Shown here in pieces: positions 3,981 through 44,480 of a stretch of DNA of 64,000 nucleotides (position 1 is its first letter; the number at the start of each line of letters is the position of its first letter). The notes below the pieces were generated by a model. That model saw nothing but the letters and a program-made list of their open reading frames with translations. It did no database searches and was not told where the DNA came from. Source of the stretch: Heptranchias perlo (Eukaryota). Position numbers and translations under genes: made by a program. Location: assembly GCF_035084215.1 (NCBI RefSeq), contig NC_090336.1, positions 51,832,001 to 51,896,000 on the forward strand, written 5' to 3'.

Positions 3981-6028
3981 TAATGATATGCTAATTAAGT
4001 TGTATGGACTAGAATTGGTAGAGACAATTACATGCTCGATGAATCCAATCTTATTGGCCCTGTGGAAATGTCATCCAAGGAATGCAAAAGCCAGGGCTTT
4101 GTAAAGTACGTTCGATAATATTCTGGAGTTTCTGTTCAGTTAAATTAAGGAGTCTGGGAGAATTTTCACAGTTTCTCTTTTATGAAGGTTTCACTTGTCA
4201 CCTGCAATCAATAGATTAAACCTACTGGGAAACACCATGGCAGGTTGAGTTGTATATTGTCAGGGAGGAGTGAACTCTATGTAACAAATGGCCTTTCTTT
4301 GTTCCAAGTCTGTAATCTGATATAAACACACACCACAAGCTCCATGTTTGCAAAAGCAAAAAGGAGGAAAGGTGACAGGCTGAGAAATGGGTACTTCACA
4401 GAAAAGAAAATCAGCTTTCTAATAGCTGTGACCATGAAAAGAAAAGGGATTAAGGACCTATGGGAAGCCATCCCAGAATGAAGTGTACACATTGTGTTTG
4501 GGAACAAACAATCAACACCTCGATGGCATGTCAAAACCAATAAAAAAAACTGTAATGAAATTTGTGGTATTCCTTCCATGAAAAGGTGAACTAAGGATGA
4601 GCTGCTTATTCAAGTCCAAGAAACACAGTCTTGGTAACAAGAGAAGACATTCTGAAGGAGCAGACAACTGACCAGCTTCTCACCCAGAGGTCTTTTCAGA
4701 TCTGGATGAAATACATGGCCGTAATGATGAAATCAAAGCACTTTCATGTGTGTGTCATGTTTCATCCTATTATATTTCATTGTGTGAATTGTCTCGATAA
4801 ACAGAATGATGGCAGACTGGAGATACCTAAACACCCTCAAAATGCATAGCATGGTCAACAGAGTTTAAAGTTACATTGCTTTGGACAATGGAGTCCACAT
4901 CCTTTAGAAAGTTAAGAAAAAATAATCTACAGGAGCAGACAATTTATTCAGGCAGTGGCCCCAAAAATCCGCAGGCACATTCCTGCGGAATCCATCAGAA
5001 GGGCAGCAAATTAGGCTGAGACCCAGATATGCAGTTCCCAATTGGCCCCGTGGGAGCAGAGATTCTGCCAGCCCCAAACAAGGCTTGCAGCATAACAGGG
5101 GGCCAAGGGACGCCCTACATTTGGAGTTCCCATTTTCCTGGTCCTCAGCTGGATCCCAGCGTAGGCTTGATGGAGTTACACGTATCCGTACGCTGAAGGG
5201 TGGAAAAGGTGCTCACCTGGGGTTAGGGAGCGAATTCCATGTCGTGGGTCTTAGGTAGCTGAAGGCACAGCCGCCATTGGTGGGATGAAAGTGGAGGCCA
5301 GAGTTAGAGGGACAAAGAGTTCTGGGGTAGGGGGTCATAGCATTGAGCAAGTTACAGACACAAGCGGCGTGATTTTAACCCCCAACGACTGTAAGATTCT
5401 CAAAATTCACAGATCCCCCAAAACTCGGAGAAAAACCCTAAAGAAAAGGACGATGGACTCTTATCTAACCATTTCAGGGTGATGAAATATTGGGCCTAAC
5501 AGAGAGTGATTCAAGGTCAAAAACCAAGATTTGGTATTTTAAAAACGGCATGTTTGGGCTTGTAAAGGAAAAAAAGGCTGCAACAGGAGTTGGGATCAAC
5601 CTCTGTAATAGACGGTTTGAGTACTAGAGTTAATCAAACTGTCTGGGGAACTGTGTGACCTCACTCAGCCCCTACCAGACATTTACATTCAGACAATAGA
5701 CCCACGGAAGAGCAGTCCCCACCCAAATTACAGGACCCATCCAAAACATGCATAAAACAAATCCAATCAGCCCACTCCATAGAAATCTCAGGCCCAGTCA
5801 GGAAACTCAGAACCTGAGCACAATGACTACAATCAAGCAAGAGCTCAACAACTCATGAAACCATCCCGAAACCACTTCACACATTTCATAAACAAGTTAC
5901 TCTTAACGAGCCAGCCAAAATCTTACAATAAACCGGGTCAGATTTGGCACGCAGATAAGGAGGCTTCAATTAGTATATGTAAGGAATCTTACAACACCAG
6001 GTTATAGTCCAACTGTTTTATTTGAAAA

Positions 6029-6065
6029 TCACAAGCTTTCGGAGGCTTTCTCCTTTGTCAGGTGA
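6029..6065 (-). ncRNA. Hammerhead copy in the inverted arm with a core mutation (CTGACAA)
   Basis: Reverse complement of 8012-8048 with G>A in the CUGANGA box. Confidence 0.6.
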
Positions 6066-6731
6066 GTGTGGGATTCCATGGAAGGTACCGCATTTATAGT
6101 CAGAGAACAATACCTGGTGATTACAGATAAACTTTCCAACTGCCCGTTGTCAAGGCAATCAAAGTGTTCAGACAGAGAGATGTTACCTTCAGGACCACCT
6201 AATTTCCAAACGGCCAGAACAAAAGACAGAGAGAGAGAGAGAAACATCCAAAAGGAAGAGAAAGAGAGAGAATGACCCGTTGTATTAAAAACAGATAACT
6301 TTTTTTCGCTGGTGGGGTAACGTGTAGCGTGACATGAACCCAAGATCCCGGTTGAGGCCGTCCTCATGGGTGCGGAACTTGGCTATCAATTTCTGCTCGA
6401 CGATTTTGCGTTGTCGTGTGTCTCGAAGGCCACCTTGGAGAACGCTTACCCAAAGATCGGTGGCTGAATGTCCTTGACTGCTGAAGTGTTCCCCGACTGG
6501 GAGGGAACCCTCCTGTCTGGCGATTGTTGCGCGGTGTCCGTTCATCCGTTGTCGCAGTGTCTGCATGGTCTCGCCAATGTACCAAGCTCCGGGGCATCCT
6601 TTCCTCCAACGTATGAGGTAGACAACGTTGGCCGAGTCACAGGAGTATGAACCATGTACCTGGTGGGTGGTGTCCTCTCATGTGATGGTGGTATCTGTGT
6701 CGATGATCTGGCATGTCTTGCAGAGGTTGCC

Positions 6732-7766
6732 GATAACATCAACAAGTTCCATCCCACCATCAAGCTCACCATGGACTACTCCTCAGAATCGGTTTCTTTC
6801 TTGGACACACGAATCTCCATCAAAGACGGGCACCTCAGCACCTCACTCTACCGCAAGCCCACGGACAACCTCACGATGTTCCACTTTTCCAGCTCCCACC
6901 CTAACCACGTCAAAGAGGCCATTCCCTATGGACAGGCCCTGCGAATACACAGGTTCTGCTCAGACGAGGAGGAACACGATGGACACCTACAGACACTGAA
7001 AGACGCCCTTCTAAGAACGGGATATGACGCTCGACTCGTCGATCGACAGTTCCGACGGGCCACAGCGAAAAATCGCATAGACCTCCTCAGAAGACTAACA
7101 CGGGAAGCAACCAACAGAGTACCCTTCGTCGTCCAGTACTTCCCCGGAGCGGAGAAACTACGCCATGTTCTCCGCAGCCTTCAACATGTCATCGATGACG
7201 ACGAACACCTCACTATGGCCATCCCCACACCTCCACTACTCGCCTTCAAACAGCCACCCAACCTCAAACAGACCATCGTTCGCAGCAAATTACCTAGCTT
7301 TCAGGAGAACAGCGTCCACGACACCACACAACCCTGCCATGGCAACCTCTGCAAGACATGCCAGATCATCGACACAGATACCACCATCACACGAGAGGAC
7401 ACCACCCACCAGGTACATGGTTCATACTCCTGTGACTCGGCCAACGTTGTCTACCTCATACGTTGCAGGAAAGGATGCCCCGGAGCATGGTACATTGGCG
7501 AGACCATGCAGACGCTGCGACAACGGATGAACGGACACCGCGCAAAAATCGCCAGACAGGAGGGTTCCCTCCCAGTCGGGGAACACTTCAGCAGTCAAGG
7601 ACATTCAGCCACCGATCTTCGGGTAAGCGTTTTCCAAGGTGGCCTTCGAGACACATGACAACGCAAAATCGTCGAGCAGAAATTGATAGCCAAGTTCCAC
7701 ACCCATGAGGACGGCCTCAACCGGGATCTTGGGTTCATGTCACGCTACACGTTACCCCACCAGTGA
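6732..7766 (+). pseudogene. Penelope RT C-terminus/thumb, Cys linker and GIY-YIG endonuclease (truncated, premature stop)
   Basis: INKFHPTIKLT..VSFLD..LYRKPT..SSHP; CHGNLCKTC; VVYLIRC...WYIGET...RMNGHR...GLN. TGA at 7656-7658 where the inverted copy has CGA. Confidence 0.9.
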
Positions 7767-8011
7767 AAAAAAGTTATCTGTTTTTAATACAACGGGTCAT
7801 TCTCTCTCTTTCTCTTCCTTTCGGATGTTTCTCTCTCTCTCTCTCTCTGTCTTTTGTTCTGGCCGTTTGTGTATTCGGTGGTCCTGTAGGTAACATCTCT
7901 CTGTCTGAACACTTTGATTGCCTTGACAACGGGCAGTTGGAAAGTTTATCTGTAATCACCAGGTATTGTTCTCTGACTATAAATGCGGTAACCTTCCATG
8001 GAATCCCACAC

Positions 8012-8048
8012 TCACCTGACGAAGGAGAAAGCCTCCGAAAGCTTGTGA
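8012..8048 (+). ncRNA. Minimal type I hammerhead ribozyme in the Penelope 3' repeat
   Basis: TCAC-CTGACGA-A-GGAG(AAAGC)CTCC-GAAA-GCTT-GTGA: core boxes, stem I, stem II and palindromic AAGCTT in place of stem III. Confidence 0.8.
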
Positions 8049-9926
8049 TTTTCAAATAAAACAATTGGACTATAACCTGGTGTTGTAAGATTCCTGACAT
8101 TTGTCAACCCCAGTCCATCACCGGCATCTCCACATCAATTAGTATAATTGAAGGCCCATTTTCTCAAGAAGTTCAGTTCAGCCAGGAGCTCGACAGCTCG
8201 GGAGACAACAGTTCAACAAGGCGAGGGGGCAACAGAAAGAAGTTCAACAGAGAAGGTCAGCAGCTCTAGAAGCAGGCCGACACACAAGAAGAAACCAGAG
8301 CAACAGCCCCAGTGACCATCAGACACCGCGCGGCAACAAGGGCCTTACGAAACAACCAACCGAATATTACCACCAACCAACCGGGTAATATTGAGCCACC
8401 GCGACCAAAGAAAACTAACTTGGGAGAAAACCGAAGATCCGCAAAGTTTCCACTCTACAATCTATTCCTGACTTACCCCTGGGTGAGTTTTCTACTCAAA
8501 AGAATCTAAATCCTATCACTTTACGAAGAAAAGTGGGTACTCACCCTACCGTATCAGCGGACTCGCGAAGACTGACCAGCTACGCAGTTGAAGTCCTCTA
8601 CCGCGTCCGGGGTACGGCAGACACTAACCAACACATACTGCGAACCCCGAAATCACGAACCAGCTCAACTGTCAAGGATTCGTTTGGTGAGCATTATCTC
8701 TGGTCCTTTAAAGCCCAACTTAGCTAGTAAGGGATTGGGAGGGGTGAGGTATCTTTCTACTGTAATTTCCCTCGTGTGTACCAAAGTGTTCCCCATTTTA
8801 TTAGAGTGTTAAGATTGTTGTGTTGTATTTCCTCTCTTGAATAAAGATCAAAGTTTCTTGCACCAAAACCAGTTGTCTGCTACACTTTTGTCACAACCCC
8901 TAAATAAGTCTAAGGTCGAGAACCAAGGGAGTGGGAGCGATTCGAACCGCTCAGAAGTCAGAGGTGAAGCTGACACATACCACCACCCCCTACAGGATGG
9001 GTGGGTTAAGGGCGGGTAGCAAGGTAAAAATTGTCAAAGTGTAAAATTCGACCCCAACCCATCTACTTCCGGTTTTAAGAGGGAGGGTCAGGCGGCAGGT
9101 GACCAATCAGCTCTCAGGAGGCGAGTCAGTCAGTGAAATCTTTTAAGGAGGCTGCAAACCTCCATTTTAACATCATTTTTATTTTTTAACTCCTGGGGTC
9201 CGGGATTCCCCGACCTTCTGATTCTCGCCAAGTAAGAGGAGGCGAGAAGGCCCAGATCAACAGGTAAGTGCCTTTATTTCACTGTTTGTGAGCCAGGAGA
9301 AGCAGGAGTGTTTCCTCCAGGCCCAACAAGCCCATCTGCCGCGGTCCATCACACACTATCGGCCGACCCCCCCCTCCCCCCCCCCAACGATGTTGTTCCA
9401 CCTCCCTGATGTCTCCGACCCCCACCCCAAACAACACCACCCTCCCCACCCCCACTCCCGCTCTCCATGACTTAGAGTAAAGATCCACAAGAAGTGGCAA
9501 TACCATGAACGAATTTAAACATGAGGATGAGAATTTTAAACTTAATGCTTTGGGGTACTGGGAGTAATGTAGGTCAGCGATGACAGAAGCAATTGGTGGT
9601 AGGGGGCCGGATTTGGTACAGGAGAAGATACGGGCAGCATAGTTTTGGATGTGCTGAAGCATACAGCGGGTAGAGGATGGGCATCCGTCCAGGAGACCAG
9701 CTGAAGGCATTTGCGGCTCATCTAAAGCTTCTGTTGTTAAACAAGTATTCTGACAACACTGAGACCACAGTTGGGTCAAGAAATGCGGTGGAGAGGTAAA
9801 GCTGGCTGTAGTCAGTGTACATATGGAAGCTGACCCAATGTCTGTGACTGATGTCACCAAGAGGCAGCATAAAGACAAGGAAGAGAAGGGGATCAAGTTG
9901 GATCCTTTGGAGAGTCTGAAGATAAT

Positions 9927-10902: not shown

Positions 10903-11385
10903 AACATAAGAACATAAGAAATAGGAGCATGGCTGATCTTCTACCTCAACACCATTTTCCTGCACTATCCCCACATCCCTTGATGCCTTTAATATCTACA
11001 AATCTATTGATCTCTGTTTTGAATGTACTCAATGACTGAGCCTCCACACCCCCCTGGGGTAGAGAATTCCAAAGATTCACCACCCTCTGAGTGAAGAAAT
11101 TTCTCCTCATCTCAGTCCTAAATGGCCTACCCTTTATTCTGAGACTCTGACCCCTGGTTCTAGATTCCCCAGCCAGGGGAAACATCCTCCCTGCATCTAC
11201 CCTGTCGAGCCCTGTAAGAATTTTGTATGTTTCAATGAGATCACCTCTCATTTTTCTAAACTCTAGAGAATACAGGCCTAGTCTACTCAATCTCTCCTCA
11301 TACAACAATCCCACCATCCCAGAAATCAGTCTGGTGAACCTTCGTTGCACTCCCTCGATGGCAAGTATATCCTTTCTTATGTAAG
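10903..11385 (-). mobile_element. CR1 LINE 3' fragment
   Basis: ORF 10946-11350 has QRRFTRLI, RGDLIE, RRNFFTQRVV; the tail is (gaacataa)n. Confidence 0.92.
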
Positions 11386-11929
11386 GTAGAGGCAGAAATC
11401 TGATTGGAGAGATTCAAAAAGGGAGTTGCAGGAACGATGAGTATGGATTTGAAGCATTACAGAAATTAATACTATGTACAGTAACAGAGTATGTTACAAG
11501 AAGATTGCAATGGGCGGGTCTTGTTTGTCATGTTGATAAAGGCTAGCACCCTTGGATTTGGTCCCAGCTGGGAAAACGCTTTGTACGAGAGCATTGGTGA
11601 GATGGGTAGGAATGTATATGTGAACAACAAATCAATGGAAGAATGACAATGGGTCAGCGGCAGAAGGAAAAACATAACAGTGATGGTTTTGCGGCACTTG
11701 TCAACCTGGTTATGATGACAGAGTTGACTAGTTCAACCGTTGAAGCGACATTATCATTTTAGTTGATAAAGGCAACAAACCCAGTCTTTGTGATTTGTTC
11801 AAATTGTCTGTGATTGGTTAAAGGGACTTCTAGATCTGAATTTCCTCTGATGAATAAAGAAGGGTAGGAATTGGTATGCATTGTGCCCGTTTTTCAGGCT
11901 TAAAATGGGCGCCACGACCTGTGCGGCCC

Positions 11930-12875: not shown

Positions 12876-12935
12876 GTAATAAATTTTCCTGGCTCATGAT
12901 CTGGCAAATTGTTCTACTAGGTTAAACAATTTAAC

Positions 12936-13148
12936 GATGTGGAGATGCCGGTGATGGACTGGGGTTGACAATTGTAAACAATTTTACAACACCAAGTTAT
13001 AGTCCAGCAATTTTATTTTAAATTCACAAGCTTTCGGAGGCTTCCTCCTTCACATCGTTCACCTGACGAAGGAGGAAGCCTCCGAAAGCTTGTGAATTTA
13101 AAATAAAATTGCTGGACTATAACTTGGTGTTGTAAAATTGTTTACAAA
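12936..13148 (-). mobile_element. Short non-coding Penelope-derived hairpin element
   Basis: Inverted arms homologous to the Penelope 3' end, with a 35-nt tail on the left arm only. TSD AAACAATTTAAC at 12924-12935 and 13149-13160. Confidence 0.9.
13058..13096 (+). ncRNA. Minimal hammerhead ribozyme
   Basis: TTCAC-CTGACGA-A-GGAGG(AAG)CCTCC-GAAA-GCTT-GTGAA. Confidence 0.8.
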
Positions 13149-14769
13149 AAACAATTTAACAACATTGACAAAGGACAATGATAAAACGTACCATAAACTA
13201 CCTTGAAGCTATATGAGCTTTACTAACATGTGATGACAACAACATCTTTCTACATTCTTAAATTTCTGAGTGTGCCAAGGGTTTTTCTTCTGATACTAAA
13301 ATAAGTGTTAGCAAAAAGGCAACTATCCCATCTGGCCTTTGCTAATATTAATAATTTGACTGACATGTACAGAGCTCCCTTGTGCCTGACCAGAGAATGA
13401 TGTGAAGCCAACAGTATAACTCTGTGCTGGTGGCTTATAGTGCTCCAGTGTTGAAACAGTACCTGCAATTTAATAGGATCTATCGACAGAAAAATGTTCC
13501 TTACTTGCTTTGGTAGTTGTAAAACATGTTTCAGCCCCTCACTAATACATTTTTCATTATGCCAAGTATTCTAATAGAAAAATTATTTTAATAAAACACT
13601 CTATAAAATTCCCCCATTATAAGATACCTTTTGTACGTCTTCCAAAGTCAACCTCATAGAAGAATGTCTGCCTTATTAAACTTTGGGATATCTAAAAACA
13701 ATCTTGTTAAAGAGCTGCCTTCGTAACTATGAGTGGATTGAGAAAAACATTGTAGACTGGCAATCCAAAGATCGTGCCACTTTGAATGTTGTCATATCAC
13801 TGAAATATTGTTCAATACCAATGGTATTGTAATGACATGAATCCTGCAGCAGTTGTTACATCCAAACAATTTCAAACAGTCAAATAGCCAAAACAAAAAT
13901 CAGACCAAAAAAAAAGGTCAAATTCAAATGGTAGCCTGAGAATGACTGCTATGCTATCAGAAACAAAGCAGACGTGGACACTTTCCTCTTAAGGCCAGTA
14001 ATCATTTGAAAATGTCCTGCAACTCCGTTCATGACTAAAATATGGTCATCTTCAGGGATTTGCTGGAAAGGATAGGGTTATGACACTGGAAAGGTTTTCA
14101 AAATACTATTGGATTTTGTTGCTTCCTTTTGAAAATAAACCATAAGCCCCTTGTGACAAAGCAGTCCTGTGTTTTGATAATATGTAGGGCACACCATTTA
14201 TTATTGCTCAGATACCAACATTCTCACTACCTGTGGGACTTTTCCACAAAACTGCAGGACTGAGGCAGAAACTCACAGAACACGTCGCAGGTGTACAAAT
14301 TTCTTGGATTGATCCAGGGATATCACACTGTGCCAAATCATTTACCCTGATAGTATGTTCTGCTGTTAATATGCCTGAAGGCAGTTTTGCAATAAATGGC
14401 TTTGTTAAGTTGTCTCGTAATGTTTTAAATGAGAAACAAAAATATTTTGCCCACATACCAAAAGTCAATGCACTTCAAAAAGTAATTCATTGTGCGATGA
14501 AGTATTTTGGGATGTTTTGGGAGAAATGTGCTTAAGTAGCACGTAAATGTGAGTCGTTCTTCCCTTTAAACAGGACAGAAATTTCCACTTGAGTTGCCGT
14601 TATAATCATGGTCTAACGGAAATCTAATTTATCATTTAATGGCCCATCTAGTCTGTAGCTTTCCTGTTGCACTGATGCAAAAACTGGAGCACAATTTGAG
14701 AGTGCAGTCATCAATCTGATCACGCATTGAATTCTGACAAGTGATATGTGAGCTCTTAGAGGAGGTAGT

Positions 14770-15111
14770 TTCTGTAAACACCAGTTTGAGACCTCTATTA
14801 GAGTGGTACAAGCCGTCAACACTGAGTTATGCCATCAACTTTGAATGGCTTTCTACTTGTACTTCAGGCCAGCTGCACTGTAACTGTAACCAGTGCAAAG
14901 TCTGGAAACTTTTTAAATGTCATTTTTGAACTTCTTAGTTTTCGCAAATAGCAAACTGGCCCATTGACTTTTTGATAACATTAAAAAATGTGGCTTGAAT
15001 ACCAGTGAGTTGAGCTTTCCCTAATTAGAAAGCCATTTAAAGTTGACAGCATAACTCAGTGTTGATGGCTTGTACCTCTCTGACAGAGGTCTCAAATTGG
15101 TGTTTACAGAA
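14770..15111. mobile_element. MITE-like element with about 85-bp terminal inverted repeats
   Basis: ttctgtaaacaccagtttgagacctct...atggctttcta (14770-14854) is mirrored at about 15026-15111. Confidence 0.8.
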
Positions 15112-15424
15112 TGATAGCAGCAGTTTTGTTCCAGAATATGCTGCATGCAAGAATTTAAAGAAGCATATTTTTAACTTAAGAATTTCCTGGTAATCAAGGT
15201 GGATTTACGAGCTGCAATAAAGCATTTCTGTCCTTTTTCACCCAGCTCCCTTTACACTGCCATCCACTGCATAAATGTTTCCATTTTTGTCATTAGTTAA
15301 CCTTGAGGCCTCCCTCAATGCGATAGCTAATTGAGTATTAAATAACGGGCAAATCAGGAATTGGGTTCAACGTTGCCAAATTCTGAATGAGGAGTTGAAA
15401 GAGGCACCAGTAAGACCAAGGCCA

Positions 15425-15745
15425 TACAACAACAACAACTTGCATTTATATAGCACCTTCAACATAGTATAACGTCCCACGTCATTTCATAGGAGCTTTA
15501 TCAGACAAAATTTGACACCGAGCGACATAAAGAGATAGTAGGACAGGTGACCAAAGCTTGGTCAAAGACATAGTTTTTAAGGAGTGACTTAAAGGAGGAG
15601 ATAGGAGGTACAGATGGAGAAGTTTAGGGAGGGAATTCCAGAGCTTAGGACCTGGGCAGCAGAAGGCACGGCCGCCAATGGTGGGGTGATGGAAATCGGG
15701 GATGTGCAAGAGGCCAGAATTAGAGTAGAGCAGAGTGACACCCAC
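15425..15745 (-). mobile_element. L2 LINE 3' end
   Basis: (caa)n-cttgcatttatatagc tail; GGRAF..GPKLWNSLP on the minus strand. Confidence 0.85.
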
Positions 15746-16624
15746 ACACCAATCCAGGATTGGGACACAAAATAAGAATCAGTTTGAGTGCATGGCCCTG
15801 AGCACTATCAAGTGACCCTTGCCGAAAATACATGTCTGAATGGAGGTCAGGACCGTACTCAGTTGTTATGCTCCGGTGGTGAATTACCTGCCAATATTCA
15901 ACGTTTCGGCTCACAACTGCCTATTGGGTTAGTGAGATGTTGCCAGCGCTGCAGAGCCATGTGCCCGTATGAGTCAGCACCTTCAGGGTGAAGGAGGATG
16001 GCATGAAGGAAATGATTAAGGAATCAAGGTAAAATGAAAAAAGTCAAGTTACAATAAAAAATAATATTTTTTTAAGTGTCTCAGTCTTAATGTATTTCAT
16101 ATGTGGTAAAAAAAACCTTGTTCCTTTAATTAGAAATGTGTGAGTTGCCTCAGCACAGGATAATTAAGTTAATTTATAGGTCATGCCAGATAATTGTGAA
16201 ATTACCCAATAAATTATAATGTTAATTTTGCAAAACTATTTGTCTTATAGGTACTGCATGCTCTTTAACTGTCCCCATTGCCACTGATGTTCATTCAGTG
16301 GTTATTTGCCTGTAACATCCCATCCATAAAAGCTTGATTATTCTTGGAAATATTAGAGGCTCAAGGGGCTTATCTCATTCTATTATCTCTTTTTATATAG
16401 TTTTAGTTGTAAAACTACCCAACATTTTGTTTCTGTTCAACTAACATAATTGACACTGACTGTGACATGGAGCTCCTCGGCAGCAAAGAAAGCAAAATAC
16501 CTCATATGGTAATTTTTATATGAAATACATTTAGTATCTAAAAAGGTACCAATGAAAATTAACATAACTAAAACATAGTTAACATAATTGTTGTGGGTTT
16601 TTATGTCAAAATATCTTGCAATGT

Positions 16625-17190
16625 AGAATCACAGAGTCTTACAACACAGAAGGTGGCCAATCGGTCCATCATGCCTGTGCTAGCTCTTTGAAAAGGCTGT
16701 CCAATTTAGTCCCACACCTCAGCTTTCTCCCCATAACCCTGCAAATTAGTTCTCTTCAAATACATGTCCAATTGCCTTCTTAAAGTTCCTTCGGAATCTG
16801 CTTCCACCACCCTTTCAGGTCATGCGTTCCAGATCTTAACAACCCTCTGTGAGAAAGAATTTCTCATTTCCCCTCTAGTTCTTTTGCCAATTATTTTAAA
16901 TCTATGACCTCTGGTTACCGTCCCACTTGCCAGAGGAAACAGTTTCTCCCTATTTGCTCTATCAAAATCCCTCATTATTTTGAAAACCTCTGTCGGGTCT
17001 CCCCTTAACCTTGTCTGCTTAACAATCACAGCTTCTCCAATCTCGACACATAACTGAAACGGCTCATCCCTGGTACAATCTTGGTAAACATCCTCTGTAC
17101 CCTCTCCAAGGCCTTGACATCCTTCCTAAAGTGTGGTGCCCAGAATTGTACACAATACTCCAGCTGAGGCCTAACCTGTGATTTGGAAAG
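16625..17190 (-). mobile_element. CR1 LINE 3' fragment
   Basis: VRPQLEYCVQFWAPHFRKD, RLRGD, TRGH. Confidence 0.9.
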
Positions 17191-17479
17191 GTTTATATCA
17201 TGACCTTTCAAGTCAACAGCTTGTTGGAGGCTTTCAATGAACATTCTTAGAATTTGTGACCATTGATGCAAAAGTAATATTATATTTAGGGCCATAAATA
17301 ATTGTTTTAGAATTCTTTGAGTTTTTTTAATGGTTACATCACTATATTAACATAATTTCTCCATCATTGTGGGTTCTTGCTTCAACCCATAGATGTGTAC
17401 AGTGGTTGATATTATTTATCAATGATAGCTTAACTCTTAATGATTTTCAGTGATCAGCATTTCATATACCTCTCCATAC

Positions 17480-17592
17480 CTTTCCTACATTACAACAGTG
17501 ACTACACTTCAAAAATAATTAATTGGCTGCAAAGTGCTTTGGGAGTTCCTGAGGTTGTGAAAGGCGCTATATAAATGCAACTCTTTCTTTTA
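17480..17592 (+). mobile_element. SINE 3' tail fragment (L2-type tail)
   Basis: tttcctacattacaacagtgactacacttcaaaa...aaaggcgctatataaatgcaa matches the tail of the 19567-20030 SINE. Confidence 0.7.
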
Positions 17593-17609
17593 CGCACCTG
17601 GGTGTCATT

Positions 17610-17755
17610 GGTCAGGAATTTCCTCAGAGCTGCTGTCACTCCGCTGCTGTAACTTCACCGGAAGCAAGGCAGAAACCTCAACAACACATGCCAATGGGGT
17701 TTCCGCTGCAGTTCTGGCGAGGTCATGGCAGCAGCGCCCAGGAAATTTCGGCCCA
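17610..17755. mobile_element. Short palindromic MITE
   Basis: ggtcaggaatttcct ... aggaaatttcggccc. A related half-copy lies at about 52360-52430. Confidence 0.55.
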
Positions 17756-17774
17756 TTGTTTTTGTTAAATTAAT

Positions 17775-18250
17775 TTTAGCGAGAGGGATAGAATATCAAA
17801 GTAGATGATATTGTTACTGTATACGACACTGGACAGACCGCTTCAGGAACCCTGTGTGAAACCTTGTTCACCATGCCATAGAAAAGAAACTATGGCCCTT
17901 CAAAGGTTGCAGCATAGGACGAGGAAGGTACCCAGGCTCAGGAATCTAAGTTATGCATAAAGTCTGGGGAAGTTGGGTTTATTCTTGTTGGAAAGGTGGA
18001 TACTGGAAAAGAGGAGACTTAGAGAAGTTTTCAAAATAATGGTGGATTGTTATCGCTGAGCCAATAAAATTGTTCACACTATCAAACATTTCAAACACTA
18101 GCGGACATAGTTAAAAATTATGAGTACGGATGGAATTCAGCTAGAAATATATTGCATGAAGGGTAATAAACTTAAGTTTAAAGAGAAGGCCATTGAAGTA
18201 AACAGGGGCAATTCGATATGATTCTGGAGAAAGGATGGATTGAGGTACAT
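17775..18250 (+). mobile_element. Highly decayed CR1 3' fragment
   Basis: Degenerate CR1 C-terminal motifs in the expected order (gggatagaatat, ctggacagaccg, gaggagacttag, actagcggacat). Confidence 0.55.
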
Positions 18251-18666
18251 ATTGGGAAGGCTGGAAGCTGTGCCGCTATCAAAAAAGGCCAAAGATTTCC
18301 CAAGAGATCTGAGGAGAGAAAATATCCTAGCAACACCTTGTTTGGTGAAGGGTTGGGGAAGTCTTGATAAATGGCAGGAGATAAGATATAATATTAAAAT
18401 TAGACCATACATTGTCCTGCTTATATTACATCAGGCAGGCCAACCTAAATAAAGTACAGCAGTAATGAAAGTAATTAGAAGCAGGTAAAGTTATACCAAC
18501 TCATGGTAAAATAAACTGTATTCATATAATAAGGGTTATTTTAAACTTTTTTTCCCTCTCAGGAGGTGACAAGCTGTATCTGACATAAATCACAGTCAAT
18601 TTAACTTCAAAATCCAGCTTCAATTTGCTCGTGTGAACAAAGTAAGTGAATGAATGTTAAGCTTAC

Positions 18667-18762
18667 CTGTCTGGCAGCCACTTCCTGTGAACCCAGGAGG
18701 ACAGGAACACATTTGTGGGGCAACACAACTTCCGCCATTCCTGCAGCCTTCCTCACAGAATG
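18667..18762 (-). CDS. NELL1: Internal 96-bp exon encoding one EGF-like domain; NELL family (NELL1-like) host gene
   Basis: Acceptor tatttttctttcaag and donor G|gtaagc, phase 1-1. Translation (A)[31 protein letters not shown] has six EGF cysteines and closely resembles the recalled NELL1 segment [32 protein letters not shown]. The paralogue (NELL1/2/3) is not certain. Absent from the ORF track. Confidence 0.8.
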
Positions 18763-19566
18763 CTTGAAAGAAAAATAGGTTTTAAGCATCTGTATGACTT
18801 AAACATGATCAAAACTTCCAAATGACCTATAGCGACCACAAAGTTGTCAAATGCTCGCTTGAGGTAAATACCCCAGTGACTCGATCTAACTGTCGTGACT
18901 TGGTTAATAAAAATAATGTCCTTATTCAGAGTTCCCATTAAGAGAGAAAACCTAAACTCTCAGCATTTAAAAAAAATCAAACATTCTTTTCCCAGACATG
19001 ATCAATGCACCCACATTACATTTTGCGCTGGGTATTTGTCATTATTTACAATATAGGAGCAAAGCAAAGATGACAGTGGATGGTATTTGAAGCATTCAGC
19101 ATGAAAATTCAGGAAAAGATGTTTAAGACACAATTACCTGGCAGATGTGGTTTGCCCTTTAAGAAATGGTAGGGGCAATTATTACTCCCTCCACCCAGCA
19201 ATAATGGAGTTAAAACTGAGGTGGTTTACTTAATGTACCCGTTACTTGCGGTTCTAAGGGTCAACCGGGCACAGCATGAAACGTGGACACTGCGCTCAGT
19301 GAAACCTGGTGGTCACAGAGTAACTCTAAAATTATTTGTATGGGGCCAGGAGGAGCAGGAGCTCTGCTCCCACGACCACCAGAATAATGTGGGTCTCTGC
19401 TGCCCCAGGCTCCTCCGCTCTGTGATCAGGCCCACCCCCCCACCCTGTCCGATCTTTCCTTATTTGAATCAACCAGCACATCAAACCATCTTCCACGCGT
19501 GTACAGTGAAGTAGTATGGAGTAAGGGGTATGCTAGAACACTTTAGAAAGTCAAAGTGCAGGACAT

Positions 19567-20030
19567 GAAAGAAAGAACTTGCATTCGTATAGCACCTTTC
19601 ATGGCCTCAGGACATCCCAAAGCACTTGATGGCCAATGGAGCACTTTTGAAGTCTAGTCATTGTTGTAATGTAGGAAACACGGCAGCCAATTTTGTACAG
19701 CAAGGTCCCACAAATAGCAAAGTGATGATGATCAGATCATCTGTTTTTTGGTGATGTTGGTTGAGGGATAAATATTGCCCAGGACACCGTGGAGAACTCC
19801 CCAGCTCTTCTTCAAATAGTGCCATGGGATCTTTTACGTTCACCTGAGAGGGCAGGCGGAGCCTCGGTTTAACGTTTCATCTGAAAGATGGCACTTCCAA
19901 CAGTGCAGCACTCCCTCGGTACTTCATTGAACTGTTAGCCTAGATTTTGCGCTCAAGTCTATGAAGTGGGACTTGAACCCACAACCTTCTGACTTAGAGG
20001 CAAGGGTGCTACCACTGAGCCATAGCTGAC
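19567..20030 (-). mobile_element. Full-length tRNA-derived Deu-domain SINE (SacSINE1-like)
   Basis: Minus-strand head with A box TGGCTCAGTGG and B box GGTTCAAGTCC. Deu core aaaagatcccatggcactatttgaagaagag. L2-like tail ending tgcaagttctttctttc. Confidence 0.85.
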
Positions 20031-20074
20031 GTGAAGTATTGTCAAAGTAGGCCCTCTCTTTTTATTTAAATTTA

Positions 20075-20239
20075 TGATGTGAAGATGCCGGTGATGGACT
20101 GGGGTTGACAATTGTAAACAATTTTACAACACCAAGTTATAGTCCAACAATTTTATTTGAAAATCACAAGCTTTCGGAGGCTTGTGATTTTCAAATAAAA
20201 TTGTTGGACTATAACTTGGTGTTGTAAAATTGTTTACAA
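20075..20239 (-). mobile_element. Short Penelope-derived hairpin element, hammerhead mostly absent
   Basis: Same arms and one-sided tail as 12936-13148. TSD TATTTAAATTTA at 20063-20074 and 20240-20251. Confidence 0.9.
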
Positions 20240-20514
20240 TATTTAAATTTAAGTAGTGAAAATTCAGTGTCCTTTCAAGTTTTACAACTAAAGGCAGTAG
20301 GGTTTTGCCTTTCATGAGGTGGCTCGATGGAGGGTCCTGTAACCATGGTGTTGTTCTCCATACTGATAAGTCTGGTCAAAATCAATGAAAAAACAGAAAA
20401 AGTTCATTTCAAATTGAAAAGCTGACCATTGCTTTACAAATTGTGGACCGGGGTTTATCTGTAGCAGTCACAAGTTAGCAGCTGCATGTTCTGCTGTAAA
20501 CTGCCAGTCCCTGA

Positions 20515-20726
20515 TGTTAATTGTAACCGTATAATTTATATCAATTAGTGTTAATTGTATTCAAGTGGTGCGTATCAATTGGGGACTCTCTTGTATCCAT
20601 TTAAATGAAAGCTTATCTTGGATGTGGAGTGGGTAATGTTGAGCTCTGTGAATGAAGGCTTGGAAGCAACTGAAGACCAGGCTCTAGTAGTCAATCGTTC
20701 ACCATCTGGCTATCCAATTTATTACA
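20515..20726 (+). mobile_element. Short solo LTR (212 bp)
   Basis: TGT...ACA termini and a perfect 5-bp TSD CCTGA at 20510-20514 and 20727-20731. Confidence 0.7.
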
Positions 20727-20931
20727 CCTGACAGTTCCTTTCATTTCCTTGCAACGTAGCAGTAGATTTAAAAAGAAAATTTCAGGCCTTGCAGCGTTAC
20801 CCTCATAATTAAGATGTAATTACATCGTTACATCGAAGCAACCGCGCAGAAACAGGCCATTCAGCACAACTGATCTATGATTGTAAACAATTTTACAACA
20901 CCAAGTTATAGTCCAGCAATTTTATTTTAAA

Positions 20932-20970
20932 TTCACAAGCTTTCGGAGGCTTCCTCCTTCGTCAGGTGAA
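20932..20970 (-). ncRNA. Minimal hammerhead ribozyme
   Basis: Reverse complement of TTCACCTGACGAAGGAGGAAGCCTCCGAAAGCTTGTGAA. Confidence 0.75.
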
Positions 20971-21032
20971 CGATGTGAAAACGATGTGAAACCGAGGCTT
21001 CCTCCTTCGTCAGGTGAACGATTTTCACATCG

Positions 21033-21071
21033 TTCACCTGACGAAGGAGGAAGCCTCCGAAAGCTTGTGAA
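21033..21071 (+). ncRNA. Minimal hammerhead ribozyme
   Basis: TTCACCTGACGAAGGAGGAAGCCTCCGAAAGCTTGTGAA. Confidence 0.8.
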
Positions 21072-21334
21072 TTTAAAATAAAATTGCTGGACTATAACTT
21101 GGTGTTGTAAAATTGTTTACAATTGTCAACCCCAGTCCATCACCGGCATCTCCACAACCTGATCTATGATGGCATTTATGCTCCACACAAACCTCCTTCC
21201 TCCCTAATTCATCTTCGCCTGTCAGCATGCTCTTCTATTCCTTTCTCCCTCATGTGCTTATCTGGCTTTCCCTTAATTGTATTCATGCTATTTGCTTTGT
21301 TCCACATTCTTACCACTCTTTGGGTAAAGAAGTT

Positions 21335-22090
21335 TTAAATGGTGATAGATTGGGACATGTTGATATACAAAGGGACCTGGGTGTCCGTGTACACCAGTCA
21401 CTGAAAGCAAACATGCAGGTGCAGCAAGCAGTTAGGAAGGCAAATGGTATGTTGGCCTTCATTGCAAGAGGATTTGAGTATAGGAGCAATGATGTCTTAC
21501 TGCAGTTATACAGGGCCTTGGTGAGACCACACCTGGAGTATTGTGTGCAGTTTTGGTCTCCTTACCCAAGAAACAATATACTTGCCAGAGAGGAAATGCA
21601 GCAAAGGTTCACCAGACTGATTCCTGGGATGGCAGGACTATAGTATGAGGAGAGATAGTGTCGACTCGGCCTGTATTCACTAGAGTTTAGAAAAATGAGA
21701 AAGGGGGTCTCATTGAAACATATAAAATTCTGACAGGGCTAGACAGACTGGATGTAGGGAGGATGTTTCCCCTGGCTGTGGGGTCTAAAACGAGTGGTTA
21801 CAGACTCAGAATACGGGGTAGGACATTTAGGACTGAGATGAGGAGAAATTTCTTCACTCAGAGGGTGGTGAACCCGTGGAATTCTCTACCACAGAAGGTT
21901 GTGGAAGCCAAGTCTCTGAATATATTTAAGAAGCAGCTAGATAGATTTCTAGACACAAAAGGCATCAAGGGGTATGGGGAGAGAGCAGGAATATGGTACT
22001 GAGATAAAGGATCAGCCATGATTATATTGAATGGCGGAGCAGGCTCAAAGGGCCGAATGGCCTACTCCTTCTCCTATTTTCTATGTTTCT
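21335..22090 (+). mobile_element. CR1 LINE 3' fragment
   Basis: QRDLGV, LVRPHLEYCVQFWSP, RRNFFTQRVV; ctatgtttct tail. Confidence 0.92.
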
Positions 22091-25030: not shown

Positions 25031-25274
25031 CTCACAATCTGAACGCTGAAAATTGGAGGTCATTATTGTTCAGGACCTTTCACAGTTTTGAACCCCTCAA
25101 TATCACTACATGGTTGTCGTGCAAATAGTGTGAAGTCAAGAAGATCTAAAGCTGAATAACTTTGAGCGCTCATTTCATAAAAGCGCAACTACATTATTGA
25201 CGATCAATATAGAATTCCACAGATCACGCAAATGAAAAGCCAGTTAGTCCAGTTAGTAGTGGATTGGTAAGGAC

Positions 25275-26445
25275 TTACCGCCCACCACAGTACTGAAATG
25301 GCCCTTATCAAAGTCACAAATGACATCCTATGTGACTGTGACTGTGGTAAACTATCCCTCCTCATCCTTCTCGACCTCTGCAGCCTTTGACACGGTTGAC
25401 CACACCATCCTCGTCCAACGCCTCTCCTTCGTCGTCCAGCTGGGTGGGACTGCGCTCGCCTGGTTCCATTCTTATCTATCCAGTCGTAGCCAGAGAATCA
25501 CCTACAATGGCTTCTCTTCCTGCTCCTGCACTGTTACCTCTGGAGTCCTCCCAAGGATCTATCCTTGGCCCCTTCCTATTTCTCATCTACATGCTGCCCC
25601 TCAACACATCATCGGAAAACACAATGTCAGATTCCACATGTACGCTGATGACACCCAGCTCTACTTCACCACCAACTCCCTCAACCCCTCCACTGTCTCT
25701 GATTTATTACGCTGCTTGTCCAACATCCAGTATTGGATTAACAAAAATTTCCTCCAAATAAATACTGGGAAGACCAAAGTCATTATCTTCGGTCCCTATC
25801 ACAAACTCCGTTCCCTAGCCACCGACTCCATCCCTCTCCCTGGTCACTGTTTGATCTGAACCAGAGCATTCGCAACCTTGGCATCCTATTTGACCCTGAG
25901 ATGAGCTTCCGACCACAGATCCGCTCCAGCGCCAAGACCGCCAACTTCCACCTCCATAACATCACCCGTCTCAGCCCCTGCCTCAGTTTATCTGCTGCTG
26001 AAACCCATAGCCATGCCTTTGTTGCCTCCAGACTGGACTATTCTAATGCTCTCTTGGCTGGCCTCCCATCTTCCACCCTCCATAAACTTGAGCTCATCCA
26101 AAACTCTGCTGCCCGTATCCTACCTCACACTAAATCCCATTCACCCATCACCCCTTTGCTCGCTGACCTCAACAGGGTGCCGGTCCAGAAATGCCCCGAT
26201 TTTAATCGCCCCACCATCAGCCCTAAGCTCTGGAACTCCCTCCCAAACCCTCACCGCCTCCCTCTCCTCCTTTAAGACGCTCGTTAAAACCTACCTCTTT
26301 GACCAAGCTTTTGGTCACCTGTCCTAATATCTTCTTATGTGACTCGGTGTCAAATTTTGTTTGATAATCGCTCCTGTGAAGCACCTTGGGACGTTTTACC
26401 ACATTAAAGGCTCTATATAAATGCAAGTTGTTGTTGTTGCTGTTG
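25275..26445 (+). mobile_element. L2 LINE RT fragment with 3' end
   Basis: STEMALIKVTND, SAAFDTVDH, QGSILGP, YADDTQLY, SRLDYSN, QNSAAR; (ttg)n tail. Confidence 0.93.
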
Positions 26446-40817: not shown

Positions 40818-41890
40818 TTTTTTTTTATTCGTTCATGGGATGTGGGCGTCGCTGGCACGGACAGCATTTATTGCCCATCCCTCATTGCCCTTGAGAAGGT
40901 GGTGGTGAGCCGCCTTCTTGAACCGCTGCAGTCCATGTGGTGAAGGTTCTCCCACAGTGCTGTTCGGTAGGGAGTTCCAGGATTTTGACCCAGCGACGGT
41001 GAAGGAATGGCGATATATTTCCAAGTCGGGATGGTGTGTGACTTGGAGGGGAACATGCAGGTGGTGTTATTCCCATGTACCTGCTGCTCTTGTCCTTCTA
41101 GGTGGTAGAGGTCACGGGTTTGGGAGGTGATGTCAAAGATGCCTTGGCGAGTTGCTGCAGTGCATCCTGTGGATGGTACACACTGCAGCCACTGTACGCC
41201 GGTGGTGAAGGGAGTGAATATTTAGGGTGGTGGTTGGGGTGCCAATTAAGCGGGCTGCTTTGTCCTGGATGGTGTCGAGCTTCTTGAGTGTTGTTGGAGC
41301 TGCACTCATCCAGGCTAGTGGAGAGTATTCCATCACATTCCTGACTTGTGCCTTGTAGATGGTGGAAAGGCTTTGGGGAGTCAGGAGGTGAGTCACTCGC
41401 CGCAGAATACCCAGCTTCTGACCTGCTCTTGTAGCCACAGTATTTATATGGCTGGTCCAGTTAAGTTTCTGGTCAATGGTGACCCCCAGGATGTTGATGG
41501 TGGGGGATTCGGCGATGGTAATGCCGTTGAATGTCTTGGGGAGGTGGTTAGACTCTCTCTTGTTGGAGATGGTCATTGCCTGGCACTTGTCTGGTGTGAA
41601 TGTTACTTGTCATATATCAACCCCAGCCTGGATGTTGTCCAGGTCTTGCTGCATGCGGGGATGGACTGCTTCATTATCTGAGGGGTTGCGAATGGAAATG
41701 AACACTGTGCAATTGTCAGAGAACATCCCGTTTCTGACCTTATGATGGAGGGAAGGTCATTGATGAAACAACTGAAGATGGTTGGCCCTAGGACACTGCC
41801 CTGAGGAACTCCTGCAACAATGTCCTGGGGCTGAGATGATTGGCCTCCAACAACCACTACCATCTTCCTTTGTGCTAGGTATGACTCCAA
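40818..41890 (-). mobile_element. CR1/L2-group LINE (Zenon/Crack-like) RT C-terminus and 3' end
   Basis: GVPQGSVLGP, ILGVTIDQKLNW, YKAQVRNVMEY, IQDKAARLI. Confidence 0.88.
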
Positions 41891-44480
41891 AATAACGGTG
41901 TGTGAACGACGCTCGCCTTTATTAATATGCAAATCAGACAGCAACTTGTGGCGAGTAAGAGATACCCTGTGAATTGCGAATCACCACAAGATGTTGGACG
42001 ATTTGTACCGCTCTGTCGTTAGTTTGCGGAAACGGCATCTCACGCTTAACCTCGCCGTGAGTTTCATGAAGTTGCTGCATTTGCACATTGATTGTCCATT
42101 AAACTCGCCACAGAAAGTTAAGTCTAGTAGTTAATAGGTTAAGTACCCTTATAACATGGGATAATTATTAATGACTGCCAATGAAACTGAAGAAAAAGGC
42201 ATACTCTAAGTACATTGACAATAAAGGAGAGGATGACAGAGGGAATATGAAGAGATTAGGAAAGAAATCAAAAAAACAATTAGGAAAGCAAAGAGGAACA
42301 ACAACATTAAATTATCAAGGAATAGAAAAAGAAATAGTAAAATATTCTACAGACACATAAATAACAAAAGAAAAGTCAGAATAGGGATAGGGCCACTAAG
42401 GGATGCACAAGATAAACTTCCAGGTAATGGCAGAAATATTGAATAGTTACTTTGCCTCAGTATTTACCAGGGAGACTAACAAGGTGGACCACTCGAAGAG
42501 ATCATAAAAAATATAAAAACATTTAAGATAAAAAGGGGGGAGATACTTGATAAACTAATTAAACTAAGAGAGGATAAAACCCCTGGTCCGGATGAATTGT
42601 ATCCACGAATATTGAAAGATGTTAGGGAAGAGATAGCAGAGGCACTATTACATATATATAAAAATTCATTAGAAAAGGGAATAGTGCCAGAAGATTGTCA
42701 GACTGCTAATGTTATACCTATATTTAAAAAGGGAGATAGAACAAGTCTATGGAACTATAGGCCAGTTAGCTTAACATTGGTAGAGGAAAAATAATAAAAT
42801 CTTTACTCAAAGATGTAATAGAAAGACACCTAGAGAAAGAAAATATAATAAAATAGTCAGCACAGATTTCAGAAGGGAATGTCATGTTTGACCAACCTTA
42901 CTGAATTCTTTGAAGAATTAACAGAAAGAGTAGACAAGGGTAATGTAGTAGATGTAATATATTTGGACTTTCAAAAGGCCTTTGATAAGGTACCGCATTA
43001 TAGAATCATGACCTAGGTCAGAGCATGTGGAGATAGGGGGCAGATAGCAGAATGGATAGCAAGTTGGCTGCAAAACCAAAAACAAAGAGTAGTGGTTAAG
43101 GGTAGCCACTCAGACTAGCAAAAGGTGGGAAGTGCTGGGACTACTGTTGATCACCATTAATATTAACGATTTGAATTTGGAATCGGAATTACAATTTCAA
43201 AATTTGCTGACAATACCAAATTGGGAGCTGGAGTTAATACAAAGGAAGAATGCATCAAAATGTAAGAGGACATTAATAAACTTGCAGAATGTGCATGTAA
43301 TTGGAAAATTAATTTCAATATAGACAAGTGTGAGGTGGTGCATTTTGGCAGAAAGAATAAGGAGGCCACATATTACTCGGATAATAAGAGTCTAAATGGG
43401 ATAGAGGAGAAAAGGGATCTCGGGGTACATATACACAAATCAGCAAGAGTAGTAGGTTAATAAGGCTGTAAAAAGGGCAAATCAAACAGTGGGGTTCATT
43501 TCTAGAGTGACAGAATTAAAAAACAGAGAACTTGTATAAAACCTTGGTTGGACCACACTTGGAGTATTGTGCACAGTTCTGGTCTCCATATTATAGAAAG
43601 GATATAGAGGCATTGGAGAGGGTGCGAAAAAGATTCACAAAGACGATATCAGAACTGAGAGGATATACTCACCAGGAAAGGCTGAACAGGCTGGGGCTCT
43701 TTTCTCTAGAAAAGAGAAGACTGAGGGGTGACCTGATAGAGGTCTTTAAGATAATGAAAGGGTTTGATAGGGTAGGCATAAAGAAAATGTTTCCACTTTT
43801 TGGGGAGTCTAAAACTAGAGGTCATAAATATAAAATAATCATTAATAAATCCAAAAGAGAATTCAGGGGAAACTTCTTTACCCAAAGAGTGGTAAGAATG
43901 TGGAACACGCTACCACAAGAAATAGTTGAGGCAAATAACATAGATGCATTTAAGGGAAAACTAGATAAGCACAAGAGGGAGAAAGGGATAGAAGGATATG
44001 CTGTGGGTTAGATGAAGTAGGGAGGGAGGAAGCTCATGTGGAGCATAAACATCGCATAGACCAGTTGGGCCAAATGGCCTGTTTCTGTGTTGTTGTTTTG
44101 CTGTAACTCGATGTAATCTCTCTGGCCCAGAAAGTCAACAAATAAAAGTGTGGTTTCTCATTCTTTCAGGTCGTGAATTGTTGTCGGAGATGTTAAAAAC
44201 GTCAAATTTTAAATTAATTTCTTGTTCTTACTTTTCTTTCTGTCCCTTTTTTCTCTCACTTAATACAATCTTTCTTTCCCTCTCTTTCTGTACCTGATTT
44301 GACATTGAATTCACCCACTCTAATTCACCCTGTCTCAGCCCTTCAGCTGTTTATTTCTCAATCCTTTAATCTCATTGTCTAAGGAGATACACTGTTTGTC
44401 CCATTGTTCACCAAGGTCCCAGATGCCCTGTTACCCATTTTCAGCTCGCACTTCCTGCAATTTACATGCGCTGCTCCAGG
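41890..44480 (+). mobile_element. MITE family A copy split by a CR1 (41890-42185 and 44116-44480)
   Basis: ...aatgactgccaat at about 42180 continues as ctctctggcccagaaag at about 44118, as in the intact copy at about 28440. Confidence 0.7.
42186..44115 (+). mobile_element. CR1 LINE with decayed RT domain
   Basis: [50 protein letters not shown]; multiple stops. Confidence 0.93.

Follow-up and report, generated by a model that had tools for sequence, protein, structure and literature searches.

Insertions of EN+ Penelope-like elements typically combine an inverted, truncated copy with a tail at one end (Craig et al. 2021, PMC8557442; Arkhipova et al. 2013, PMC3846280), and how these inverted arms and tails are made is still unsettled. 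The short palindromic elements described here share the published hallmarks, namely head-to-head arms, a tail of 30-40 bp at one end, a short target-site duplication (TSD), an overlap or palindrome at the inverted junction and a minimal hammerhead in the terminal repeat. They depart from them in having arms of only 60-137 nt, without an ORF or direct pseudo-LTR (pLTR), and in an apparent 5' start shared within one subfamily. The TSD is also 12 bp in all four insertions seen here, against 8-10 bp in published rotifer examples.

The nearest biochemical precedent is Poseidon PAc of Anolis carolinensis (Frangieh et al. 2024, PMC11167929). In that study, the Penelope protein cuts and extends both strands at AT-rich targets, reverse transcription starts at two sites that bound the tail and needs RNA downstream of those sites, product length tracks where the template's 5' end lies, and hammerhead cleavage is dispensable. 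Two such start sites would fit the two fixed arm ends described below; we found no model of head-to-head products there, however, and the Poseidon hammerhead overlaps the start of the ORF, while the parent here appears to be of Neptune type, and so the biochemistry can be carried over to Neptune by analogy only.

The hammerheads themselves have close counterparts. The minimal ribozymes of Penelope-like elements (Cervera and de la Pena 2014, PMC4209133) have a short stem I, an unpaired base before stem II, a palindromic 15.2-16.2 and no helix III, all as here; what differs is the shark sequence and, in two of our elements, a leader predicted to form a competing fold. The same study reports opposite-strand pairs 100-700 bp apart in Schistosoma and attributes closely spaced minimal hammerheads on opposite strands to truncated Penelope-like elements. 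Both the head-to-head layout and close opposite-strand hammerheads are already published for this group. Animal non-LTR retrozymes (Cervera and de la Pena 2020, PMC7229834; Li et al. 2026, preprint 10.64898/2026.07.22.740005) are likewise short, non-coding, related to pLTRs and equipped with a type I hammerhead, and are also present in a cartilaginous fish. Their units, however, are tandem and head to tail, with consecutive same-strand hammerheads and circular RNA, whereas ours are head to head with at most one core per strand.

Architecture of three short insertions

The window (the whole 64,000-nucleotide stretch of Heptranchias perlo DNA analysed here, to which all positions refer) holds three short insertions, E1 (12936-13148, 213 bp), E2 (20075-20239, 165 bp) and E3 (20882-21158, 277 bp). 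The initial annotation had proposed exactly these, each with its own 12-bp TSD, and we found the duplications to be exact and to abut both ends of all three elements directly: 12924-12935 and 13149-13160 for E1 (10/12 AT), 20063-20074 and 20240-20251 for E2 (12/12 AT), and 20870-20881 and 21159-21170 for E3 (8/12 AT). Counting also a long copy discussed below, 40 of 48 TSD bases are A or T, compared with 56% for the window.

Within its TSD each element consists of an inverted, tail-less Penelope 3' end and a tailed 3' end. We number the arms by the tailed arm of E3, which defines U1-137, U1 being position 21022. This arm (21022-21158, plus strand) comprises a 12-nt leader at 21022-21033 that is absent from the long copy, a hammerhead core at 21038-21066 and the tail at 21123-21158; its partner (20882-20981, minus strand, U1-100) is tail-less and carries an intact core on the minus strand at 20965-20937. 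Between them lies a centre of 40 nt (20982-21021, minus strand), which runs from U11 to U2, through two unassigned bases, and then from U36 to U8/9. In E1 the tailed arm (12936-13051, minus strand, U22-137; tail 12936-12971) retains a truncated hammerhead core, and the tail-less arm (13049-13148, plus strand, U3-101) begins in the leader and has an intact minimal core at 13063-13091. E2 is built from a tailed arm without a core (20075-20183, minus strand, U30-138) and a tail-less arm (20180-20239, plus strand, U42-101). The tail, 36-37 nt long, occurs on one arm only in all three, and measures about 34 nt in the long copy. The earlier description of elements made only of two inverted Penelope 3' ends thus holds for the head-to-head ends, but not for the asymmetry of the arms nor for the two extra partial copies in the E3 centre.

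The arms of E1 and E3 are identical over 114/114 and 97/97 nt, with a single difference at the second-last base of the tail, and 14 differences in 125 positions set them apart from the long copy; the claim that the first and third elements match each other and stand apart from the long Penelope is borne out. Membership of one distinct young subfamily applies to E1 and E3 but does not extend to E2, since both E2 arms depart from E3, and agree with the long copy, at three internal sites, the tailed arm agreeing with E3 at nine other diagnostic sites. Overall, identity between the short-element arms and the end of the long copy is 86-91%. Inside each short element the arms are identical and carry common subfamily variants, which requires that both were copied from one RNA or one source locus, or were homogenised by later arm-to-arm conversion.

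The long copy and its parent

A 2.2-kb insertion in the same window has the same head-to-head build, with an inverted, tail-less arm (5978-6731, minus strand, 754 nt) that is 96.8% identical to the other arm and has a mutated hammerhead core, and a tailed main arm (6732-8134, plus strand) with a hammerhead core at 8016-8044, enclosed by an exact 12-bp TSD (5966-5977 and 8135-8146); neither this build nor the TSD had been recorded in the initial annotation. An inverted copy and a 12-bp TSD therefore accompany every one of the window's four Penelope insertions, which range between 165 bp and 2.2 kb in size. The main arm, which is truncated at its 5' end, encodes the C-terminal part of a reverse transcriptase (RT), a CX4CxxC linker and a GIY-YIG-type endonuclease region that is interrupted by an in-frame stop at 7656-58. 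A CX2-5CxxC linker between RT and endonuclease defines Neptune, and is shared with Nematis (PMC8557442), and from this motif in its ORF the parent is probably of Neptune type. RT-bearing shark proteins match the ORF remnant at 93-94% identity, and PF01541 is present in some further homologs; when the remnant and its inverted copy were scanned against Pfam, neither had a match (0/2). All four window copies are truncated at the 5' end and all lack the direct pLTR, or partial tandem, that is a feature of full-length copies and not required of truncated ones. In sequencing contigs the tail of the Neptune-type parent appears to run into an ATG.

Proposed hairpin formation and a possible shared start point

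We consider it probable that E1-E3 are dead-end integration products of a protein-coding Penelope-like retrotransposon of the Neptune clade, the hairpin being formed at insertion. The GIY-YIG endonuclease would nick both strands of AT-rich DNA 12 bp apart, and each 3'-OH would prime a separate cDNA with the element RNA as template, one starting at the end of the tail (U135-138), the other at the tail's start (U100-101). Both cDNAs would stop early, and their far ends would be joined through 3-4 nt of microhomology to give a hairpin. The arms conform to this pattern: their 3' ends fall at just these two fixed sites, while their 5' ends vary (U1-6, U22-25, U30-34 and U42-46 in the short elements; in the long copy the arms reach about 0.75 and 1.4 kb). 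The E1 arms overlap by a 3-nt microhomology, and those of E2 are joined over 4 nt ending at the predicted hammerhead cut site, which we place at U46 from the type I fold; the E3 centre may record template jumps that recurred close to the template's 5' end. Turn-around points do differ among the copies, as had been claimed. The related suggestion that these are extreme truncation products whose hairpin is made at integration gains support from the fixed 3' ends, from centres that vary and are joined by microhomology, and from the build shared with both the long copy and published elements. Against it stand the variants common to both arms of a short element, with the constraint on their origin given above, and the fact that three of the four window copies are shorter than 300 bp, which is many for random truncation.

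In the E1/E3 subfamily, synthesis would likely often run off the 5' end of the RNA a short way upstream of the hammerhead, which is what use of the pLTR copy at the 5' end of a full-length transcript as template would predict. The tail-less arm of E1 (U3-6), both E3 arms (U1-3) and one inner piece of E3 (U2) start at the leader. A related repeat is very abundant in sequencing contigs (about 13,400 contigs per DNA run, from one sample), with unrelated flanks behind 21156 in 107, 103, 12 and 15 contigs (agreement 0.42-0.51). In ten contigs from two runs long unlike sequence stands directly before 21020-21023 (agreement 0.59-0.67), and summed depth, which is not a copy number, rises 25-fold from 21014-19 to 21020-25 in run X1, so that the leader itself is multi-copy. 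Two or three of the ten distinct contig joints listed enter at U0-3, and the letters before them differ; the listing is silent on strand change and omits the junctions of E1 and E2 themselves. Together, 5 of 13 starts fall within 4 nt (P 0.002-0.04), or 4 of 12 (P 0.02-0.20) once a joint with 18 unassigned letters is left out, the overall range of 0.002-0.2 depending on the null and the rows used. Though the statistics are borderline, a shared start near the leader suggests a template with a fixed 5' end, and the start common to E1 and E3 may be the end of the copied RNA. Such an end suggests either run-off from the 5' pLTR of a full-length RNA or a short non-autonomous RNA.

The second of these, a dedicated short, non-coding, SINE-like RNA derived from Penelope, with its start at the leader and with mobilisation in trans by the Neptune RT and endonuclease, the hairpin again arising at integration, we regard as unlikely. 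Starts at the leader, the contig joints (three of ten, counted in its favour), their clustering, a multi-copy leader and the unlike sequences before 21020-21023 all speak for it, and non-autonomous derivatives of Penelope-like elements have been published (Chlamys, PMC8557442). However, the clustering weakens without the ambiguous joint; homology to our reference ends at U1, so that any arm extending further is logged with its start at that point; two joints agree in two of three letters just upstream, which may be parental; run-off from full-length RNA predicts the same fixed 5' end; and neither a promoter nor a source locus was identified. No full-length parent bearing the E1/E3 leader was found among the contig rows listed or in protein searches, and no upstream sequence was common to leader copies among 24 of 425 loose contig ends, where the upstream sequence of the long type appears at 21034; both results count against integration products of a coding parent, the second also being compatible with an independent short template. 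Protein searches with the frame open across E3, aimed at sequence upstream of the leader, had no match (0/216 and 0/8 candidates), and alternative-frame or UTR translation of the long copy gave one weak, unrelated match. No RNA run is among those listed for the repeat, and two runs that we guess to be RNA contain it as contigs, which are uninformative on transcription.

In its boldest form, which we hold to be doubtful, the abundant shark hairpins would arise because the Neptune protein primes both nicked strands on a Penelope SINE RNA with its 5' end fixed at the leader, so that every insertion is a hairpin and the leader switches the hammerhead off. If a less bold version is true, a strong-stop-like run-off from the 5' pLTR, hairpins would map the starts of Penelope transcripts and allow two-ended priming to be tested on nothing more than genome sequence. 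In very short young copies each junction is visible in full, and a genome-wide census of them could discriminate two-ended priming from self-priming and could reveal cDNA run-off at a fixed RNA 5' end.

Self-priming, by snap-back of a single cDNA or on an antisense template instead of by two target-primed syntheses, seems to us improbable. It has been proposed on an antisense template for rotifer Penelopes (PMC3846280), and would account for the identity of the two arms of each short element, with their common subfamily variants, and it would suit E2 and the long copy, whose tailed arms extend further 5'. In E1, however, it is the tailed arm that stops short on the 5' side, so it is not a simple snap-back copy of the tail-less arm; moreover, the would-be copy has a tail where its supposed template has none. 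Both arm ends also match the two-start-site pattern obtained in vitro (PMC11167929). We reject simple snap-back as the only route.

Hammerhead motifs and the remaining alternatives

A pattern scan found one intact minimal hammerhead core in E1 (plus strand), two on opposite strands in E3 and none in E2, in agreement with the original report of intact cores in two insertions. The pattern has five matches in the window, four of them in Penelope ends, against a mean of 0.63 and a maximum of 4 in pair-shuffled sequence, and both sequence and predicted fold are those of a minimal type I hammerhead with a stem I of 5-6 bp. Rfam gave no match in the window at gathering score, and the hammerhead pattern none in metagenome contigs; a 20-base arm pattern had one metagenome, two prokaryote and no viral matches, all three by chance and extending at most 28 nt. 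Fold prediction gives stems I and II a pairing probability of 0 in whole-element transcripts of E1 and E3, and with the leader included the predicted pairing of stem I falls from about 1.0 to 0.38. The hammerhead would be a passenger from the pLTR and is predicted to be inactive inside the fold-back.

These folds bear on the proposal that the elements form a retrozyme-like family, whose multimeric transcripts would self-cleave into monomers or circles and be re-inserted by the Penelope RT. The intact type I core would allow it, animal retrozymes derive from pLTRs (10.64898/2026.07.22.740005), the start of the tail-less arm of E2 could coincide exactly with the cut site, and the leader has 6 nt in common with the end of the tail (8 nt with that of E2), like an old head-to-tail junction. 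Yet the 6-mer in common is not preceded by tail sequence on its 5' side, five of the six main arms in the short elements start elsewhere than at the cut site, the window has no head-to-tail unit, and no element has two cores on one strand. A tail-to-leader joint is also lacking among the contig joints listed, a weak argument given that the E1 and E2 junctions are missing from the same listing. With the leader's predicted effect on stem I and both stems predicted to be buried in the fold-back, we find membership of a retrozyme family very improbable and reject it; E1-E3 are not evidence for a new self-replicating ribozyme RNA.

MITEs and fold-back assembly artefacts, suggested by short, palindromic, non-coding, TSD-flanked sequence, are rejected as next to impossible on the unpaired tail at one end, the unequal lengths and centres, the derivation from the 3' end of an RT/GIY-YIG element and the 12-bp TSDs, which fold-back artefacts would not yield. 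In annotation, such palindromes resemble MITEs but should be classed as Penelope insertion ends.

Arrangement and variants of the insertions

Three short insertions, E1 (12936-13148), E2 (20075-20239) and E3 (20882-21158), consist of Penelope 3' ends (arms) set head to head, and together with a long copy, a 2.2-kb 5'-truncated Neptune-type Penelope-like element (PLE) at 5978-8134, they are the only BLAST matches to the E3 arm in the window. As the initial annotation proposed, each short insertion has its own 12-bp target-site duplication (TSD), the exact direct repeats abutting its ends; the long copy also has an exact 12-bp TSD, and AT pairs make up 40 of the 48 positions in the four TSDs against 56% of the window. 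That annotation's description of two inverted 3' ends holds for the head-to-head layout, with the correction that the arms are unequal. In sense-unit numbering (U1 is window 21022), one arm of every element ends at U100-101 and the other at U135-138, so that a tail of 36-37 nt is present on one arm only, on the left in E1 and E2 and on the right in E3 and the long copy. The long copy is built likewise, from an inverted tail-less arm of 754 nt and a tailed arm of 1.4 kb.

The open reading frame of the long copy contains the C-terminal part of the reverse transcriptase (RT), followed by a CX4CxxC linker and then a GIY-YIG-type endonuclease region with an in-frame stop. Its protein is 93-94% identical to proteins labelled Heptranchias perlo and 82% identical to one labelled Scyliorhinus torazame, which makes a shark host likely. 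This linker type is described as a mark of Neptune/Nematis (PMC8557442) and would place the parent with that group. The endonuclease stop lies in the forward arm (7656-7658), while the inverted arm reads through. Since its arms differ by about 3%, the long-copy insertion is older than E1-E3. E1 equals E3 save for one base at the tail end, and 14 of 125 sites separate this pair from the long copy. At three internal sites both E2 arms carry the letters of the long copy and not those of E3; at nine others E2 equals E3. There are therefore at least three variants, each short element carrying the same one in both arms, and the single distinct subfamily suggested previously fits E1 and E3 but does not extend to E2.

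Contig placement on 21008-21175 at 90% likeness gave 13,499 contigs for one DNA run and 13,300 for another; for a further two runs, guessed to be RNA, it gave 3,641 and 3,383. All four runs come from one sample, possibly that from which the window derives, and depth summed over contigs does not measure copy number. Two E2 variant letters are common in these contigs, and the repeat is therefore both abundant and diverse. The insertions are real and abundant, and their architecture is already known: endonuclease-type PLEs are described as typically having a truncated, inverted copy next to them and a tail of 30-40 bp at one end only (PMC8557442, PMC8969392, PMC3846280). A search of papers, mainly ones outside subscription, turned up none that treats short Penelope hairpins of sharks or strong-stop-like products of PLEs.

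Formation of the hairpins

The Poseidon protein of Anolis is reported to cut AT-rich DNA with extension of both strands, to start reverse transcription at two internal sites bounding the tail and to require RNA downstream of both, with product length tracking the template 5' end and hammerhead cleavage dispensable (PMC11167929). By analogy across clades, both nicks would prime cDNA, one from each start site, and the two cDNAs would then be joined through microhomology; a single such event would leave head-to-head arms, only one of them tailed, between the two copies of a TSD. Loose contig ends behind 21156 lead into unrelated flanks (107, 103, 12 and 15 contigs; agreement 0.42-0.51), and their consensus starts with the last bases of the tail plus ATG, which fits a tail lying before the open reading frame. 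Because inserted copies end at the tail, they would lack downstream RNA for re-use, and we read them as dead ends.

The centres fit the earlier suggestion that hairpins form anew at each integration, since they differ between elements. In E1, U22-25 is joined to U3-6 with three shared bases; in E2, U30-34 is joined to U42-46 with four; and in E3 the tail-less arm reaches U1-3, followed by a piece from U11 to U2 and, after two unassigned bases, another from U36 to U8/9, beyond which the tailed arm begins at U1-2. An alternative origin of PLE palindromes by self-priming (PMC3846280) would suit E2 and the long copy, but it does not fit E1, whose tailed arm is shorter at its 5' side and is therefore not a snap-back copy of the tail-less arm. 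Cleaved RNA may occasionally serve as template, a hint of which is that the start of the E2 tail-less arm (20180-20184, within the 4-nt microhomology) may coincide with the cut site predicted for the hammerhead, U46 being the first base 3' of that site.

Hammerhead motifs

A minimal type I descriptor matched five times in the window (mean in shuffles, 0.63), four of the matches being in E1 (+), E3 (+ and -) and the long copy and the fifth a weak, unrelated one, bearing out the claim of intact cores in two insertions; an Rfam search of the window at gathering score returned no hammerhead. The motif in these Penelope ends matches in form the minimal PLE hammerheads of PMC4209133, which reportedly need a second copy on the same strand and cleave weakly, and which in Schistosoma occur in pairs 100-700 bp apart on opposite strands, ascribed there to truncated PLEs. 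In whole E1 or E3 transcripts the computed pairing probability of stems I and II is 0, because the arms are predicted to pair with each other, and in an isolated arm the 12-nt leader upstream of the hammerhead (21022-21033) is predicted to reduce the pairing of stem I, about 1.0 without it, to 0.38. The proposed retrozyme-like family is not supported: non-LTR retrozymes are defined by tandem units with consecutive hammerheads and by circular RNA (PMC7229834; 10.64898/2026.07.22.740005), while E1-E3 lack that tandem arrangement and the descriptor places two cores on the same strand in none of the window's elements.

The leader and neighbouring sequences

The one lead worth counting genome-wide is a possible fixed 5' end of the template. 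The leader is common to E1 and E3 and absent from the long copy, four arm or piece starts of E1 and E3 lie within U1-6, and of ten distinct contig joints, tabulated in 11 rows with one repeat, three enter at U0-3. Of 13 starts, taken from the ten joints and the three elements in the window, 5 cluster within 4 nt, for which six uniform nulls give P 0.002-0.04; without a joint having 18 unassigned letters the figures are 4 of 12 and P 0.02-0.20, in a test biased by reference homology that ends at U1 and by a joint table that lacks strand and holds short gaps only. Given this bias, and P values of up to 0.20, the chances that an E1/E3-type template has a fixed 5' end seem to us evenly balanced. 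Such an end would be expected if cDNA synthesis ran off the 5' pseudo-LTR of a full-length transcript, the Penelope promoter of D. virilis being described as internal (PMC2377424), or if the template were a short independent RNA. Long unlike sequence directly precedes 21020-21023 in ten contigs from two runs, and 13 further contigs extend before 21027 with an agreement no better than 0.53. The 24 loose-end rows listed, out of 425, include the upstream sequence of the long type but no common upstream sequence for the leader, and weak protein and DNA-pattern searches for a leader-bearing parent were blank. Three more of the ten joints enter at U15 (21036), after T-rich letters, perhaps the start of another subfamily, likewise just upstream of hammerhead stem I.

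Six nucleotides of the leader (21026-21031) recur at the very end of the tail (21153-21158, 12936-12941), and eight are common to the leader and the E2 tail end (20075-20083), as an old head-to-tail junction would leave; the bases 5' of the shared six are not tail sequence, and four of the six also align with the UTR of the long copy. A 64-codon open frame across the E3 palindrome (20887-21081) has no protein relatives in the searches made and is likely due to chance.

Elsewhere, a tandem array of about 30 copies of a 62-bp unit (56970-58788, 93% matches) has no hammerhead by the minimal type I descriptor, and a G-rich minisatellite (48586-49631) has about 33 units of about 30 bp with variable G runs. 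Open frames at 59025-60739, 43520-44011, 21170-21643, 10946-11413, 25260-26275 and 41133-41609 resemble what we take to be ORF1, endonuclease and RT-end fragments of LINEs (CR1/L2-type). Two further frames occupy 1534-2950, the first with a tryptophan-spaced stretch that presumably recalls the Myb/SANT-like domain of Harbinger-derived sequences.
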